DNA from: Nitrospinales bacterium
GTDB taxonomy: Bacteria; Nitrospinota; Nitrospinia; Nitrospinales; VA-1
Direction of reading: 5' to 3'
Length of the DNA stretch: 64,000 nucleotides
Assembly (NCBI GenBank): GCA_965262115.1
Contig: OZ253496.1
Coordinates: 288,001 to 352,000, forward strand
The notes under the pieces are model-generated. The model made no database searches, was not told the origin of the DNA, and worked only from the letters and a program-made list of their open reading frames with translations. This document shows positions 8,081-56,230 of this stretch, one piece after another; within the stretch, counting starts at the first letter, position 1; the number at the start of each line of letters is the position of its first letter. The position numbers and the translations under genes were made by a program.

Positions 8081-8115
8081 TTCCGGGTCTGGCTCCTTTC
8101 CACTAGCCGTGGGGG

Positions 8116-8176
8116 CAAATAGCAATGGCTCGTTGAGCCGAGATAACTCTTTGCCAGCCCAAAAAAGTTGTTGCAC
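8116..8176 (+). repeat. Dispersed intergenic repeat family, core TTGAGCCGAGATAACTCTTTGCTAGCC (representative copy)
   Basis: Degenerate copies at about 9150(-), 15685(-), 18990(+), 21608(+), 25265(+), 31660(-), 44630(-) and 52846(-). Confidence 0.75.
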
Positions 8177-8256
8177 TTTGTCACCGGCGGCCCGCCGGCC
8201 AAAGAGCGTTGGGGATTATCGAGAGGAATACGAGTAGCTAAACAGTGACGGAGGTA

Positions 8257-8973: not shown

Positions 8974-9281
8974 GGCTTGAAAAAACCCTTGAATTCAAAC
9001 CCTTTGCATTTCCGGAAGCTCAATTCAGAAGGAGGGATATGGAGGGAGAATGTTATCTTTTATAGCAATTTCAGTCAAGAAAATAATTCCCACTCGGCGT
9101 GGGGCCAGTGAGAACCGGCGAGCCGCCGGTGGCAGATAGCCATGGCTCATTTGGCTAGCAAAGAGTTATCTCGTGACAGGCTGAGTGAAGTTTGAAGGAC
9201 CACTATTTAAAAGAGAGGGGCTCATATAGACCCCGCAAGCGGGGATTGCCGGTTGCTAGTTCGCCCCACGCGGAGTGGCGG

Positions 9282-14910: not shown

Positions 14911-15339
14911 ATGGCTAGCAAAGAGTTAGAAGTTCTTGAGGATTATATTGTTCAAAACAAGCTGAAGATCACTAAGCAACGGCGTGCTGTTCTCAATGCT
15001 TTTATGGAAAGCGAAAAGCATGTCAGCGCTGAGGAACTCTACAATCAGGTCACCGTCACCGACCCAAAAGTGGGGCTGGCAACGGTGTATCGCACTCTAG
15101 CGTTGCTAACCCAAAGCGGCCTGGCCTCGGAGCTGGATTTTGGCGACGGACAAAAACGCTATGAACATAAATACATGCATGGTCATCACGACCACATGAT
15201 CTGCACCGAGTGTGGAAAAATCATCGAGTTCAACCATCCCCTCATCGAAAAGTTCCAGGAAGAAGTCGCCAGCCGAAACGGGTTCAACATCACTTCCCAC
15301 AAATTGGATATGTTTGGCCTGTGTAACGAATGCCGCTAA
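14911..15339 (+). CDS. fur: Fur family transcriptional regulator
   Basis: TKQRRAVL, GLATVYRTL, HHDHMICTECG and C-terminal CxxC. Confidence 0.92.
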   Translation: MASKELEVLEDYIVQNKLKITKQRRAVLNAFMESEKHVSAEELYNQVTVTDPKVGLATVYRTLALLTQSGLASELDFGDGQKRYEHKYMHGHHDHMICTECGKIIEFNHPLIEKFQEEVASRNGFNITSHKLDMFGLCNECR

Positions 15340-15427
15340 CCCCCACTCGGCGTGGGGCCAGCACTGCATTGCCCGTGGAGCGAACTGAGTATTCAAACGC
15401 AATACTATAATGACTCCCCCTGACAAG

Positions 15428-15634
15428 GAGACCTTTGCGTAAGTCTATAAAGCAGAAAAGCGAGATGCTTCGAGATACCCCTACGGGGCAAGAATTCAAA
15501 GGTCAAATATCACTAGCTCAGCATGACAATAAAAGGCTATTTTGTCATTCTGAGGAGCTATTGCAACGAAGACGTGATACTTTTCCCTAACCTTCGTGCC
15601 CCGGAGGGGTAATCTTGGGTTATGCAAAGCTCTC
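15428..15634. mobile_element. MITE copy A (207 bp, non-autonomous)
   Basis: TIRs GAGACCTTTGCGTAA / TTATGCAAAGCTCTC (13/15 match), flanked by 9-bp direct repeat CCTGACAAG (15419-15427, 15635-15643); second copy at 17443. Confidence 0.9.
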
Positions 15635-15772
15635 CCTGACAAGGGGGATAAAGAGGATTTACATATCAGCAGTTTTTTTGACGAGCAAAGAGTATCTTGG
15701 CTCAATCAAGCCCTTGCCAACTGGCAGCATGTTATGATCCCTCATCAGTCTTTATGCACCGAAGGGGTACGC

Positions 15773-16669
15773 CTAGTGGGGAAGGGACTGGGCGCAACGA
15801 AATCCGATATAGTTAAAGATTTCGTTCATGACCTGGCCATAGGTGGTCACTTTTGGGAAAACTTTATTTTTGGGATGTAGCCAGACCCGGTTGGTGATGC
15901 GTAATGCGCCGGCTGAAGAGTCGAAGGAACCACCTCGTACCACTTTCGATTCACCCGCTTCCGGACCTTGAGGGTTGTCTTTCGAGCGGACTTTATAATA
16001 AGGCTCATACCAGTCGTTGACCCACTCCCAGACATTCCCCATCATGTCATAAAGACCGTACTGGCTTGGGGCTTTACTCCCAACAGGGTGTGTGGTCTCT
16101 GCTGAGTTATCTTCAAACCAGGTGTAATCTCCATGCACCATATTGCCCCAGAAGTAGCGGGTTGTCGCCCCTCCCCGAGCCGCATATTCCCATTCCGCTT
16201 CGCTGGGCAAGCGGCAGGCACCCTGTGATTTCTTGATAAACTTCTGCACATCCAGAAAATTGACCTGTTCAACGGGCAAGTCTGCTCCCATGAACTTGGA
16301 GGGATTATATCCTCTCAGCTTTTCCCAACGCGCCTGGGTCACTTCATATCTATCCAGATAAAAATCATCGACGCATACCTCATGCTCCGGCTTTTCATCT
16401 TCCTGGGTATAATCATTGCCCATGATAAAACACCCACCCTTTATGAACACCATTCCTTCAGGAGCTTTGTCGGCTTTTGACTGATCTTCGGGAGAAAACT
16501 GAACCGGTGCAACCCGCTGATCAGAGAGAGGAGTAGATTCTTCCGACACCTCTGGCAGTTCGGAAAAGCTGGGATGAATCTCGTCACTACCTTGGTCCTG
16601 GGCATTATCAGCGCAAGCCGAAAGTAGGAAAAAAACGCTGAGGATGATGAATGTTCTATAAAAACGCAT
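15773..16669 (-). CDS. FGE-sulfatase (SUMF1-like) domain lipoprotein
   Basis: Lipobox LSAC, RLPSEAEWEYAARGG, GLYDMMGNVWEW and IGFRCA motifs. Confidence 0.9.
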   Translation of the reverse strand: MRFYRTFIILSVFFLLSACADNAQDQGSDEIHPSFSELPEVSEESTPLSDQRVAPVQFSPEDQSKADKAPEGMVFIKGGCFIMGNDYTQEDEKPEHEVCVDDFYLDRYEVTQARWEKLRGYNPSKFMGADLPVEQVNFLDVQKFIKKSQGACRLPSEAEWEYAARGGATTRYFWGNMVHGDYTWFEDNSAETTHPVGSKAPSQYGLYDMMGNVWEWVNDWYEPYYKVRSKDNPQGPEAGESKVVRGGSFDSSAGALRITNRVWLHPKNKVFPKVTTYGQVMNEIFNYIGFRCAQSLPH

Positions 16670-16884
16670 TGTTTTAACAGGAGTTGGGGAAAGGCGAATA
16701 ATACCATTTTAATGAGGTTTTACAAAAAAATTTCTGCATTTTAAGAACTTACTGCGGTTTTTCTTGAAATAATCCTGAAATGGGTTAAAAAATGGCCCCA
16801 CATCCACGTATTTTCCAATAGATAGTTCAAATTTTTTGTCCAAATACCGATAAATAATAGAACTACTTATCATGGAGCTGGACT

Positions 16885-18760
16885 TTGCGATTCCTAAAAC
16901 CACTCAGCATTTTTGTCTCTTGCCTATTACTGGGAACAGGTTGCAGTACCCTGGAAAAAACCTATCAAAAAACGCGCCAGACAATGGCGAACCTTTTTAA
17001 CGCCGCCGAGGACACCTATCGTCCTGCCTTGGGACTGGACAGGGATATTGACTTGCAATTCGCCAAGCACCAGTTCAATCGCAGAGAATATTCCATTGCG
17101 GAATTTTATTTAAAAAAGACATTGGCCAATCAGCCGGAAAACCGGGAAGCCATCCACCTTCTGCCTTGGGCTTATTTTTTCCAAAAACGTTTTGACAAAG
17201 CATTGGCGTCTTTCAAGCAGGCACACACACTGCACAGAAAAGACCCAACCGCCTTATTGGGTATGGGCTGGTCTTATTTCAGCTTGAAGCAATATCAGAA
17301 GGCTTTGGATAGTTTTGAGCGCGCCGAACGGTTTGCCTCCCACTCCTACGAAATCCACAAAGGCAAGGCCTTCATTCATCTGGAACAGCGGCGAGGCCAG
17401 CTTGCACGAGAAGAACTGGAAAAAATTCTTCCACTCGCCAAGGAGACCTTTGCGTAAGTCTATAAAGCAGAAAAGCGAGATGCTTCGAGATACCCCTACG
17501 GGGCATGAAGTTTAATGAAGAGGATATCACATACCCCTACGGGGCAAGAATTCAAAGGTCAAATATCACTAGCTCAGCATGACAATAAAAGGCTATTTTG
17601 TCATTCTGAGGAGCTATTGCAACGAAGAATCTTGGGTTATGCAAAGCTCTCCTCGCCAAGGTGAATGAATTGCTGGAACAGTGGGAAGCTTCAAACCGTA
17701 ATGACTTCATCGTTCGTTGGGCGATCGTTCCTTCCAACCCTGATTCCAGTTCGATATTTACCTTACCGGTTGAGTTTCCCCGATATCGCAGCCTTCTCCT
17801 TGGAATGCCCACAGAAGACATAGAAGCTCTGGACTCAGCATGGGAAAGCTATTATCAGGGCAAGTACGCTAAAGCGTCCAACCTGTTTGGTGGACTGGCC
17901 CGGTCAAATTCCCCAAACCTGGATGCGGTGAACGGGTTGGCCTGGAGCCTGATGCATGCAAAACAAATCAATAAATCGGAAAAAACATTCAAGGAAATCC
18001 TGGAACTTTACCCGTATTTCCTGGGGGCCTTCAAAGGCCTGCGGGAAATTGAGGAAATCAAGAAGCGCCAGGCTGTTTATGTACAAAACTATTATGAGTA
18101 TGCGATTGACAAGTTTTTAAAATCCATCGAGCATGAGGATTATGAAATATCTTCTGCCAAAGGACTCGGCCTTTCTCTGTTTGCCATAAAAAATTATTCG
18201 GATGCCATTCCTTATTTGCAAATGGCCTTGAAGAGTGACCCCGAAAACAAAGATATGGCTTATAAACTCGACTGGAGCATTCTGAGAAGTGAGTCTCTGG
18301 GCGTTTCCCAAAAATATTTTGAAGATGTTTTAAAAAATCATCCTCTCCGCGCTTCGCCCTATATGGCTCTCGGTTGGATTCACTACAACTGGAGAAACCC
18401 TGATCTAGGAGTGGAATATTTTCTCAAAGCCATTTCTCTCGATCCGGATTTTGCGCTGACACCGGAGTTTCTAAAATTGTTGAAAAAGGAACGATTTGAA
18501 TGGCAAGTCATAATTCCCTGGGCGGGACCTACTTTCAAAATCAATTGGATGACCAGGCCATGCAAATGTTCAGGCATTCTCTAAAAATCCAACCCAACAA
18601 ATCCGAAGCCCACAAGGGAATGGGTTATGTCTATTTTCGACAGGGCAAACATAATTCAGCACATAAAGGCCTGATGAAGGCCAAACATGCCATCACCGAA
18701 GAACGCCCGAAAGCCAAGCCCCCCCCTCCTTTCGATTTCCTTCGAACAAGTCCGAATTAG
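16885..18760 (+). pseudogene. TPR-repeat lipoprotein interrupted by MITE copy B and a later frameshift
   Basis: Removing 17443-17660 joins ...PLAK to VNELLEQW in frame. A further frameshift near 18510 continues the TPR sequence (NSLGGTYF...AHKGMGYVYF) in ORF 18500-18760. Confidence 0.85.
17443..17651. mobile_element. MITE copy B (209 bp)
   Basis: Same TIRs and 168-bp core as copy A; 9-bp TSD CTCGCCAAG (17434-17442, 17652-17660). Confidence 0.92.
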
Positions 18761-18972: not shown

Positions 18973-19062
18973 GGGAATTGGGCAAGGGCTCTATTGAGCC
19001 GAACCATCTCTTTGCTAGCCTGCAATAGTTTTTACACGTTGGTCCCTCCCCGAGGGGGCCGC

Positions 19063-24190: not shown

Positions 24191-25264
24191 ATGAATCCCT
24201 CTCACAAATTAAACACACAAAACTTCTTTGGCACCTCGGAAACCGCGCTCAGAGAACTTTTTTCTGATTTGGGTATTGAAGCCTACCGAGCTCACCAGGT
24301 TTTCACCTGGGTCTATCATTATCATTGCCGGGATTTTAATGAGATGAGCAATCTTTCTAAATCTTTGCGGTCCCAGTTGGCAGAGCATTTTCATTTCTCA
24401 CTCCCCAAAATTCAAAACCGAACCCACTCCAAGGACGGGTCGATCAAATATTTATTGGAAATGAATGATGGAGCGGTGGTGGAAAGTGTCTGGATGCCTT
24501 CGGAATCCAGAAAAACTTTATGCCTTTCCACGCAGGTGGGTTGTCGTCTGAATTGCTCGTTCTGTTTAACGGCAAGCCTGGGACTGAAAAGAAATTTAAC
24601 AGCCGGTGAAATCATCGGCCAACACATCGCCATCAATCAGGAACTCAAAGAGAAAGACCAGATCACCAACATTGTTTTTATGGGAATGGGCGAACCCCTG
24701 GACAACTATGGGCCGTTTGTCGATGCATTGCGTCTCATGATCTCCCCGGAAGCCATGAAAATTTCAACAAGAAAGGTCACCGTTTCCACATCAGGACTGG
24801 TTGAAAAAATGAAAACGTTTCAAGAGGAAAACCTGCCGATAAACCTGGCTATTTCTCTCAACGCTTCCGACAATGCCACCCGCGACCGGTTGATGCCTAT
24901 CAATAAAAAATACTCCATTGAAGTCTTAATGGATTGCCTTAAAAAATATCCTTTAAAACCGCAAAGGAGGCATACCATCGAATATGTCCTGCTCGCAGGC
25001 ATCAATGATTCGGATGAAGATGCGCAGAGGCTGGCAAAATGGTTGAGGGATGTTCCCTGCAAGATCAACCTGATTCCTTTTAACGGTTTTGATCCGTCTG
25101 AATACAGGCCTCCCACCGAACAGAGAATTTTGAAGTTTCAAAATTATTTGATCGAGCAGAATTTTTCTGCCTTTATAAGACAAAACCGGGCCACGGACAT
25201 ACTCGGTGCCTGTGGGCAACTCGCGGCCAGCGTGACGCTGGACCCAATAATCAATGGCCCATAA
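24191..25264 (+). CDS. rlmN: 23S rRNA (adenine-C2) methyltransferase RlmN
   Basis: STQVGCRLNCSFC, VFMGMGEP and GACGQL motifs. Confidence 0.96.
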   Translation: MNPSHKLNTQNFFGTSETALRELFSDLGIEAYRAHQVFTWVYHYHCRDFNEMSNLSKSLRSQLAEHFHFSLPKIQNRTHSKDGSIKYLLEMNDGAVVESVWMPSESRKTLCLSTQVGCRLNCSFCLTASLGLKRNLTAGEIIGQHIAINQELKEKDQITNIVFMGMGEPLDNYGPFVDALRLMISPEAMKISTRKVTVSTSGLVEKMKTFQEENLPINLAISLNASDNATRDRLMPINKKYSIEVLMDCLKKYPLKPQRRHTIEYVLLAGINDSDEDAQRLAKWLRDVPCKINLIPFNGFDPSEYRPPTEQRILKFQNYLIEQNFSAFIRQNRATDILGACGQLAASVTLDPIINGP

Positions 25265-25341
25265 AGCCGAGATAACTCTTTGCTAGCCAGCAAAAGCTAT
25301 TGTTCATTCTCCCCGGGCGTTGCCTGGCTTTGCAAGACTCC

Positions 25342-44432: not shown

Positions 44433-44689
44433 AACCCACTGATTCAATGCCCCTCACACGACAGGGGAAGGATAATATAAATCCTTTACCGGGTCAATAG
44501 CTGAGTACCTCCGCCCACTGGGCGTGGGGCCGATGAGCACGTGATATTCTTCTGCGCTGTGATGATCCTCTTCCTTAAACCTCATGCCCCGGAGGGGTAA
44601 GAGCCCGTCGAGCCTCCAAAACTATTTGCTCGCCAAACAAAGAATTATAGACGGCTTAACGAGCTCTTGCTATATTTTCCCCCACGGGA

Positions 44690-52688: not shown

Positions 52689-52913
52689 AACAAAAGTCCT
52701 GTATCAAAGAGGAATGTTTTTTGGCAAAGGGCCAAATACCATAAGGTACTATGTTTTATATACTTATGGGAAATAAATGTCAAGCTACTAGCCGCCGCTA
52801 AGCGCGGAGCCAGCGTGACGCTGGACCCAATGAGCAATGCCTCTGTTTGCTAGCAAAGAGTCATCTCGGCTTGATGAGTTCTTACCCGGTTTCCTCCTCT
52901 GGCAAGGAACCGG

Positions 52914-56055: not shown

Positions 56056-56230
56056 TTCCTCTCCCCTGGAGGGAGAGGATTAAAGTGAGGGGGAATGAAA
56101 CCAGATCCCAAATCTGCCGCAAAAAAACTCCGAAACAACTCACCCGATGCAAAAGTAAAGCTATGGTCTGCGCTTAAAAACCGCCAACTGGGAAATTTCA
56201 AATTTCGCCGTCAAGCCCCCATCGGCACAA
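56056..56230 (+). pseudogene. Truncated DUF559 (Vsr-like endonuclease) gene with upstream REP-like palindrome
   Basis: AKKLRNNSPDA..KLWSALKNRQLGNFKFRRQAPIG, after which similarity is lost; preceded by the CCTCTCCC...GGGAGAGG hairpin. Confidence 0.75.

Follow-up and report, generated by a model that had tools for sequence, protein, structure and literature searches.

A 39–41-base hairpin-ended unit dispersed without target duplication in a Nitrospinales genome, and how it might move as a folded DNA strand

The window analysed here, a 64,000-nucleotide stretch of a Nitrospinales genome, carries six copies of a very small repeat, hereafter the unit, together with two copies of a MITE, one of which splits a TPR-repeat gene. 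The features are as follows.

15428..15634, + strand: MITE copy A, 207 bp, equal to the 129-bp empty MITE plus two 39-base units, with IS5-type terminal repeats
15419–15427 and 15635–15643: 9-bp target duplication of MITE A
15476..15514, + strand: unit, A:T type, 39 bases, sitting inside the first MITE A palindrome
15573..15611, − strand: unit, C:G type, 39 bases, found in MITE A but not in MITE B
15726..15727, + strand: two altered host bases, AG against CC in the empty host, the third and fourth bases past the tail end of the next unit
15730..15769, − strand: unit, T:A type, 40 bases with one stem mismatch, within a CCAC...GTGG palindromic repeat
16885..18584, + strand: TPR-repeat gene split by MITE B into ORFs 16885–17457 and 17661–18584
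17443..17651, + strand: MITE copy B, 209 bp (129 + 41 + 39), interrupting the TPR gene
17434–17442 and 17652–17660: 9-bp target duplication of MITE B
17491..17531, + strand: unit, T:A type, 41 bases, lying head-to-tail with the resident unit, at whose head it was inserted; lacking from MITE A
17532..17570, + strand: unit, A:T type, 39 bases, identical in sequence to 15476–15514
44540..44557, − strand: 18-base tail of a second, outer unit adjoining the next copy, the remnant of a nested pair
44558..44599, − strand: unit, T:A type, 42 bases, in the intergenic region separating a cytochrome c554-domain gene from queA

An earlier sequence-only reading of this DNA had listed the six copies, and all of them lie where it placed them; the 15-base head matches six times, compared with 0.01 expected from 100 shuffles. 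The tail, however, runs one base further than was claimed, and this final base pairs with the one that follows the hairpin. Between their ends, MITE copies A and B show zero mismatches and differ solely by a 39-base block in A and a 41-base block in B. Neither block is accompanied by a target duplication, and each MITE copy represents the empty site of the other, as had been proposed, with junctions that slide by one base. Furthermore, the unit at 15476–15514 has an exact empty host site 21 times in this genome, for the GACA variant of the site, and 20 exact empty sites were found for the unit at 15573–15611. The insertion point of MITE A corresponds to an empty chromosomal site in G004 (locus L167), and the TPR gene is intact in all 21 orthologous loci that have both anchors (29 loci examined). 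A unit does occupy 15730–15769, and the orthologous site is empty in G019 (locus L159), but it is not a clean insertion, as bases 15726–15727 differ both from the usual empty host and from G019. The outer unit at 44540–44557 likely lost its head by slippage.

The description of the unit is based on column statistics and pattern searches. A genome-wide pattern search yielded 261 complete units, 246 of them 39–41 bases long. The unit is non-coding, with fixed and asymmetric ends, a single terminal hairpin instead of separate left-end and right-end hairpins, and the purine-rich variable middle that the first description had noted (mean 0.75). Its four-pair stem shows compensatory change, the pair 6:10 alternating between C-G and G-C; in the loop, only the middle base, position 8, is free to vary and takes all four bases, whereas positions 7 and 9 are 95–100% fixed. 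The reverse strand reads X'-GTGAT, a G-poor spacer of ~18 bases, TTC-X and the hairpin TGCCCC-GNA-GGGGTA, so that TTC-X stands on the 5' side of the hairpin. Because a G-N-A loop gives DNA, but not RNA, a hairpin of unusual stability that resists exonucleases, the reverse strand is probably the working strand. Among the 64 triloops, GNA alone gives the mini-hairpin (PMC13037366).

In 239 of the 261 units, the base adjoining the hairpin (X) makes a Watson-Crick pair with the unit's final base (X'). When only distinct bodies were counted, 155 of 175 were paired, compared with a mean of 84 and a maximum of 103 in 2000 shuffles, and the pairing was kept at 80 of the 88 sites with unique-like flanks. 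Single changes at X:X' are common, with T facing G at 44 of 466 sites and eight C-A pairs. Linkage among three founders could account for part of this pairing. In the tandem pair of the window, only the reverse strand is predicted to fold with a stem that continues past the junction (z −1.7, which is weak alone).

Could these units simply be passengers or leftovers, produced by deletion from a longer ancestral MITE or by tandem slippage? Some classes have clearly been amplified with their hosts: all 17 copies of an IS3 element carry the unit, all copies in G072 and G073 occupy a single host position, and one run consists of four identical head-to-tail copies. However, deletion from a longer ancestor fails because the empty MITE measures 128–129 bp and lengths rise from there in ~40-base steps; MITEs without a unit, at 24 of 54 complete copies, outnumber every other class. 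The units lie in 158 distinct contexts in this genome, they are nested in their own loop in 17 of the 70 family genomes, and in the IS3 homologues of G016 and G063 the sequence runs on unbroken at precisely the point of insertion. Further independent sites include prophage contigs and many unrelated repeats besides the IS3 element. The sequence-only reading had said that it would fall if deletion explained the differences and no independent sites existed; neither is the case. As a general explanation, the passenger account is refuted, and we leave it almost no probability.

When flanks were rejoined across the units, exact empty sites were recovered for 24 of 197 flank pairs, and for 56 of 193 when one mismatch was allowed. 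What these empty sites match is the loss of a single unit; offsets implying a duplication or a deletion gave at most 3 matches for any one offset. The host MITE has terminal inverted repeats and, in 42 of 54 copies, a 9-bp target duplication, both traits of DDE-type MITEs and both missing from the unit itself. Exact empty sites and independent targets thus support what was proposed: the unit is mobile and very small, its ends are asymmetric, one of them bears a hairpin, and its insertion leaves no target duplication. Among the matches listed for contigs of near-identical strains, no presence/absence variants of units were seen, and plasmids gave no match. Composites without the first nine bases exist and were considered as products of read-through transposition, which we do not claim because they can be slippage deletions.

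Within the genus, units are present in 20 of 22 genomes. One unit only was found at 134 of 186 loci, and just 14 of the 261 units lie inside ORFs of at least 150 aa, several of which are spurious. Repeats are strongly favoured as targets: 19 of 146 sites in this genome have unique flanks, compared with 101 of 150 random intergenic points. The flanks show no fixed target tetranucleotide and only a weak preference (N-S-Y-D-C), and the position of the cut relative to host hairpins follows no clear rule. We considered the variable middle as a programmable target guide and rejected it, as no complementarity between units and flanks was found in a fixed or a free register. No replication-strand bias was detected in this genome (78 vs 86 independent sites, p 0.58). 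On one contig of G054, unit orientation looks skewed.

It is possible, though in our judgement unlikely, that units spread without a dedicated transposase, being copied by host proteins through template switching or gene conversion from a filled site to an empty site with similar flanks; the hairpin would stall or protect the strand, and a few donor flank bases would be co-converted. Such homology-guided copying accounts for the missing enzyme (see below) and the absent strand bias, and also for the repeat preference, the reuse of exact insertion positions across genera and the tie between unit type and host site. Moreover, identity within six bases of flank is 0.40–0.72 for near-identical units compared with 0.25–0.52, although the pairs depend on one another and some of them are diverged copies of a single host. 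On the other hand, near-identical units are also found at unrelated targets without flank similarity, the IS3 junction included (in 27 of the 158 contexts, the middle is identical to that of a unit in an unrelated context); unit ends are exact to the base, and the conservation of X:X' would be left unexplained.

A two-base change beside the tail end bears on the same question. At self-nested sites of this genus, GG is replaced by CT three bases past the non-hairpin end in 26 of 33 cases, whereas the sister genera show the change in none of 21. A dependence of this change on the sequence of the inner unit is weakened, since sister genera with the same inner types are unchanged. Homology-guided copying can explain the recurring CT as hitch-hiking flank; however, the changed bases are positions 3 and 4, and position 1 usually follows the target (GG-CT-CA, CG-CT-CA, TG-CT-GC), for which one donor flank is insufficient. 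This fixed two-base scar is a constraint that every proposed mechanism must reproduce.

Which enzyme might act on the unit? The sequence-only reading expected HUH mobilisation of the IS200/IS605 or RAYT type. No Y1, RAYT or Y2 gene was found in this genome (93.9% complete) by profiles, tblastn and an HUH motif scan. Searches with PF01797, PF13366 and PF04986 gave nothing fitting, NF047646 gave one match far under its cut-off (E 0.02), and the best hit of our own profile from 30 Y1 sequences (E 0.014) was not an HUH protein. Across 120 genomes, the presence of Y1 genes does not track the unit: eight genomes have at least 100 heads, a Y1 match occurs in two of these, and its long type also occurs in unit-free genomes. 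The transposase flanked by unit ends that had been suggested as a check was sought at 33 Y1 loci from relatives and seen at none. In other families of the phylum, hairpins of a similar C4-GNA-G4 form border Y1 genes that carry a subclass 1.2 signature (L403, L406), and the anatomy of the unit is still HUH-like. Nevertheless, the HUH reading is unproven, because there is no Y1, RAYT or Y2 gene, no tracking candidate and no replication-strand bias; with no fixed target either, it is not supported so far.

Alternatively, the unit could be moved by an enzyme of another element in this genome, namely the IS110 recombinase, DUF559 or small GIY-YIG nucleases, Cas1 or an integron-type integrase, which we consider improbable. 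All of these enzymes occur here, and many targets are palindromes flanking DUF559 and GIY-YIG genes. The neighbours of units in this genome, in genome loci and in metagenome loci included no recurring nuclease besides IS110 and IS3, and the single CRISPR array found has no unit nearby. Across relatives, none of the DUF559, Cas1 and IS110 profiles tracks the unit, nor do tyrosine recombinases in five genomes; the GIY-YIG search covered this genome only, and many of the genomes compared are incomplete. DUF559 is missing from G007 and found in unit-free genomes, Cas1 matches occur in 9 of 70 family genomes and in none of six from the unit-rich genus g18, and a third tyrosine recombinase scoring like the integrase-like gene of this genome was not seen in G013 or G007. 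The IS110 element (domains PF01548 and PF02371, CT core) occupies ~24 unit copies. Its bridge-RNA guides match the loop of the unit, the left and right target guides in its upstream non-coding end matching the head, so that they aim at the unit as a target; of 23 genus genomes, six have an IS110 match, and G007, with its 81 units, has none. We conclude that this IS110 is an ordinary family member with a new natural target, a parasite of the unit.

A route through an RNA copy and reverse transcription, as has reportedly been proposed for the cyanobacterial SDR repeats, appears quite improbable. The unit resembles those repeats in size, nesting and absence of target duplication, and the excess of T-G over C-A at X:X' (44 vs 8) would suit pairing on the forward strand. 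However, the conserved loop is a DNA-type GNA triloop, units show no bias relative to gene direction (90 vs 84), and Rfam returned only two snoRNA matches, both far under cut-off. PF00078 gave nothing fitting in this genome, whose sole reverse-transcriptase match is broken and lies within the first 85 kb, a region that looks like foreign eukaryotic sequence.

Our preferred explanation, held with a confidence somewhat short of even, is that this 39–41-base element, which has entered hundreds of sites with no target duplication, travels as folded single-stranded DNA and is acted on by a strand-transfer enzyme whose gene lies elsewhere. By pairing, X and X' would stack the 5' end on the foot of the hairpin and bring the two ends together at a single nick, giving a small dumbbell. 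A single strand exchange of the tyrosine type at this nick may free a circle while sealing the donor again, and running the exchange backwards would insert the circle, presumably into hairpin-forming single-stranded regions with a weak sequence preference. The hairpin end would be joined exactly, and repair may sometimes complete the other end, giving the two-base change in this genus. Copies within other repeats would also multiply as passengers and would probably undergo exchange by gene conversion. The geometry agrees with the guide rule of TnpA-REP, by which the last two guide bases read the bases flanking the cut (PMC3479197). Among the contigs, neither a circle nor a free strand of the unit was seen. 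Near-identical units share more flank identity than distant ones, an observation that goes against this mechanism and favours copying by homology.

More speculatively, and with rather low confidence, the unit may represent a class of self-aligning single-stranded DNA micro-elements, in which one internal pair brings the two ends to a single nick, a 40-base dumbbell with no protein of its own is excised and reinserted by an unrecognised or host strand-transfer enzyme, and, in this genus, two target bases at a set distance are rewritten. If so, the enzyme would add a new kind of activity to bacterial transposition. An enzyme able to insert ~40 bases with no target duplication and little target specificity would have interest as a tool. 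To our knowledge, the spread of repeats under 50 bases is an old open question, the SDR and CGTC-type repeats having no known enzyme. The unit family makes it testable, with exact ends, hundreds of filled and empty sites, an end-to-end pair and closed genomes without an HUH gene. It also affects the shape of these genomes: it sits in every copy of an IS3, provides landing sites for ~24 IS110 copies and rides a gene-breaking MITE.

How does the unit compare with known systems? The closest are the small dispersed repeats SDR1–8 of Nostoc punctiforme and relatives, reportedly described by Elhai et al. in 2008 (Genome Res 18:1484) and said to be 21–27 nt long, to lie in other repeats, minitransposons and their own copies, to show compensatory structure and a patchy distribution in one lineage, and to have no known enzyme. 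Like them, the unit is very small, non-coding, dispersed, compensatory in structure, patchy within one lineage and nested in itself and other repeats; it differs in its length (39–41 bases), phylum, GNA triloop, X:X' pair, flank change and own IS110 parasite. The suggestion of an undescribed minimal element holds for the family, on which a literature search that covered few subscription journals found no paper, but not wholly for the kind, as the SDR repeats reportedly behave alike.

IS200/IS605 elements show a replication-strand bias towards the lagging-strand template, and their non-autonomous derivatives are called PATEs. By the mechanism summarised in PMC6006769, their ends share with the unit the lack of target duplication and a left-end-like cut ~22 bases 5' of the hairpin; GAA-loop hairpins also occur at IS605-type ends in this phylum (L397, L399). 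The unit differs in using one hairpin for both ends, with no fixed target tetranucleotide, no strand bias and no TnpA in the genome. The REP, REPIN and RAYT systems, as described in PMC3479197, PMC8266576, PMC3116915 and PMC3733652, likewise comprise hundreds of short intergenic hairpins. Compared with these, the unit has TTC-X where the hairpin foot would bear a GTAG, GTGG or CGTC tag, moves as a single copy whose spacer is fixed and not as an inverted doublet, and has no RAYT gene in the genome or adjoining any copy examined. Even so, the bases 5' of its hairpin could read the junction as the REP GTAG guide reads C|T. Finally, the IS110 element shares its domains, CT core and guide-bearing upstream end with the bridge-RNA IS110/IS621 group, as described in PMC11208160, and it targets the unit just as IS621 targets REPs.

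We found six matches in the window to the 15-base head of the unit (TACCCCT-N-CGG-K-GCA), compared with 0.01 expected, and all of them lie where the sequence-only reading had placed its copies. As that reading had also noted, the two host MITEs differ by unit-sized blocks without duplicated target bases, being identical between their ends save a 39-base block found only in A (15428-15634) and a 41-base block found only in B (17443-17651).

15476-15514, forward strand: unit copy in MITE A
15573-15611, reverse strand: unit copy in MITE A
15730-15769, reverse strand: unit copy
16885-18584: TPR gene, split by MITE B
17491-17531, forward strand: unit copy in MITE B
17532-17570, forward strand: unit copy in MITE B
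44558-44599, reverse strand: unit copy

The genome-wide pattern search proposed earlier, run on the genome containing the window (G000; a single contig, C1, of 2.68 Mb, 93.9% complete), returned 298 heads, 261 of them with a tail, of which 246 were 39–41 bases long. The strict unit pattern was present in 20 of 22 same-genus genomes, at 1 to 324 copies each, and in 0 of 18 other relatives sampled; the reversed control pattern gave 0. With a looser head pattern, other genera of the family (g18 and parts of g16) gave dozens of copies and two genera of a second family a few; of 80 listed genome loci with the unit, 79 were titled Nitrospina, Nitrospinaceae or Nitrospinota. Seven unit heads lie on a 50 kb viral contig. 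In G072 and G073, of a second family (L420-L425, L427, L428), the unit persists at a single host position, its tail decayed and its C:G end pair retained.

On the forward strand, the unit reads TACCC(C/G)T-N-C(G/C)GGGCA, then a base X, a purine-rich middle starting with GA, and the tail AT(C/A)AC, with X' as the last base. X and X' form a complementary pair in 239 of the 261 G000 units and in 155 of 175 distinct bodies; across 2000 shuffles, the number of such bodies averaged 84 and peaked at 103. The stem pair 6:10 changes between C-G and G-C with both bases altered together, and in the loop only position 8 varies freely, positions 7 and 9 being fixed. Which strand acts? Read on the reverse strand, the hairpin is a G-N-A triloop with one extra stem pair (G-T), and a review (PMC13037366) describes GNA as alone among 64 triloops in forming an extra-stable, exonuclease-resistant DNA mini-hairpin, with a much weaker RNA counterpart; the reverse strand would therefore act, as DNA. 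G is kept out of the reverse-strand spacer, forward C amounting to no more than 7% across ten positions. If the unit ends were joined, the stem would continue over the junction via X:X' and then the next C:G pair; for the tandem pair in the window, a junction-spanning fold was predicted on the reverse strand only (z −1.7, weak alone).

With the flanks rejoined, 24 of 197 flank pairs had an exact empty counterpart elsewhere in G000, or 56 of 193 when one mismatch was allowed, while offsets implying duplication or deletion scored at most 3, which upholds the earlier claim of insertion without target duplication. The host MITE has 54 complete copies, of which 24 are unit-free (mostly 128–130 bp) and 42 carry a 9-bp target duplication; the unit-bearing copies lengthen in steps of ~40 bases. 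Consequently, the MITE is an ordinary element of DDE type that the unit entered later as a guest, and the alternative that the differences arose by deletion from a longer ancestral MITE does not hold. Of 29 orthologous loci examined, both anchors were recovered in 21, and every one of these has an intact TPR gene. IS5-type transposase remnants, assigned by eye, lie at G000:C1:205636-205950 and 131125-131811; the former has a MITE terminal repeat nearby and is a likely mover of the MITE.

Independent insertion sites, whose lack would have spoken against mobility, do exist: the unit lies near the orfA end of an IS3 element in 17 of 17 copies, and homologues in two relatives (G016 and G063) are contiguous precisely at the insertion point. 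This element (G000:C1:1657488-1658778 and 16 more copies) expanded with the unit already inserted just before the orfA end, where it alters the reading frame; 10 of the 17 copies also bear IS110. Nesting of a unit within a unit loop is seen in 17 of 70 family genomes. The middles of units at unrelated sites are a median of 2 bases apart, with 27 of 158 identical, consistent with slow, ongoing activity and no special mutagenesis.

The unit prefers repeats as targets, as only 19 of 146 G000 unit sites had unique flanks, compared with 101 of 150 random intergenic points; many of the remaining sites are small palindromes, and the weak tail-side preference is N-S-Y-D-C (466 sites). Further short palindromic repeat families hosting the unit lie in the window at 8094-8187, 9084-9173, 15337-15368, 18997-19033, 25222-25316, 44514-44540 and 52807-52876. 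When tested, the unit middle did not act as a target guide, and G000 showed no bias of replication strand (78 vs. 86, p 0.58); gene direction was likewise unbiased (90 vs. 84). In another relative, G054, the heads listed on contig C1 are mostly on one strand (genome: 7 forward, 26 reverse), unlike in G000.

We tentatively favor, at slightly less than an even chance, movement of the folded GNA strand by tyrosine-type strand transfer. X:X' pairing would bring both ends to one nick, where the transfer would take place; the ends, pairs, empty sites and targets are demonstrated, and the working strand, the circle and the enzyme are inferred. The main rival, which we consider somewhat less likely, is homology-guided copying by host proteins, and the two may operate together. 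Unit type is linked to host site class, and flank identity within 6 bases is higher for near-identical units than for distant ones; both findings favor a contribution of host amplification or gene conversion to the spread and speak against purely random insertion.

Where a unit lies inside another unit's loop, the outer arm GGGGCA frequently reads GGCTCA. In G000 and the fetched loci, GCT occupied flank positions 2–4 in 27 of 44 filled sites vs. 6 of 995 empty sites, and at a second host (TGGGGC) in 6 of 8 vs. 1 of 304. The window unit at 15730-15769 shows the change, and its unchanged empty site is found in a relative (G019); a precursor and a product with the same outer body both occur in G000 (C1:2270388 and 1853348). 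Across the family, 26 of 33 nested cases in this genus carried the change, compared with none of 21 in g18, g15 and g16. Every unit type takes part, both as inner and as outer unit, so one ancestral composite is insufficient unless there was further exchange. Three points speak against a general rule: the AAAG|AGGG host showed the GCT change in 0 of 16 filled sites, the same inner unit occurs both with and without it, and none of these counts is one of independent events. The bases may be written by repair at insertion, or a flank variant may hitch-hike through conversion.

Could an element that targets the unit also move it?

G000:C1:120361-121578 and ~23 further copies (L344): IS110 element (IS621-like; PF01548, PF02371) in the unit hairpin

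The upstream end was aligned in 24 copies and starts within a unit head in 21 of them, and all 26 downstream ends run on into CGGGGC; the core is CT, head positions 6–7. The upstream non-coding end has a predicted fold with two internal loops (z −2.9) and carries TTACCCCT and CCCGAAG, matching the left and right target, respectively, which follows the pattern described for IS621 (PMC11208160). Two divergent copies have the guide CCCGCAG and lie in units with loop base G; a G016 copy has CCCGGAG, its flank being absent from the assembly. In the divergent copies, the right target guide thus varies together with the loop base, which is guide-target covariation toward a new natural target. As only 6 of 23 genus genomes have matches, G007 not among them, IS110, a parasite of the unit, is unlikely to move it.

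The sequence-only reading had proposed looking for a Y1/HUH transposase flanked by the same ends. Searches of G000 (93.9% complete) turned up no Y1, RAYT, Y2 or GxxExxY gene, and the unit flanked 0 of 33 Y1 loci examined, absences that hold within the limits of incomplete genomes. Of 120 phylum genomes, 37 carry Y1 genes, but among the 8 with at least 100 heads only 2 do. A lead comes from Y1 genes of other families in the phylum: those bearing the signature of subclass 1.2 (PMC6006769) are flanked by C4-GNA-G4 type hairpins (L403, L406), and at L403, L404 and L406 by inverted repeats with short GNA-loop hairpins; none was of this type among the matches listed for the unit's own family. G000 has DUF559 and small GIY-YIG genes, flanked by host palindromes rather than by the unit. 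Eight of nine DUF559 nuclease matches (L314-L321, including window 56110-56229) were inspected and are bracketed by CCCTC...GAGGG-type palindromes that also occur gene-free, which looks like a nuclease-plus-repeat mobile system. The palindrome family bracketing the GIY-YIG genes (G000:C1:2573200-2573538 and 2378867-2379190) also makes up the MITE interior; one of these genes is truncated, with a unit just downstream. DUF559 and Cas1 were rejected as movers, as their distribution does not track the unit. By gene order, judged by eye, G000 has I-C-like, fragmented type II-like and I-F-like CRISPR-cas loci (C1:2121181-2127676, 2643316-2646940 and 765604-769605), of which the first two look broken. 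Approximately C1:1-85000 has the look of eukaryotic sequence attached to the bacterial contig: its tandem arrays are long, real genes are scarce, and a match to reverse transcriptase there is broken.

How does the unit compare with known systems? The HUH mobilisation proposed earlier is unproven: the unit works like a one-hairpin derivative of IS200/IS605 or REP, and its geometry fits the TnpA-REP rule (PMC3479197, PMC8266576) by which the two final bases of the guide read the positions flanking the cut; on the other hand, it does not qualify as a member of either group, and G000 yielded no Y1 or RAYT gene. Our literature search found no paper on this family. In behavior, the small dispersed repeats (SDR) of cyanobacteria are closest. 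CGTC-type repeats are also described as having no dedicated transposase (PMC3733652). The unit family is real, and it is a variant of a known but unexplained kind of repeat.
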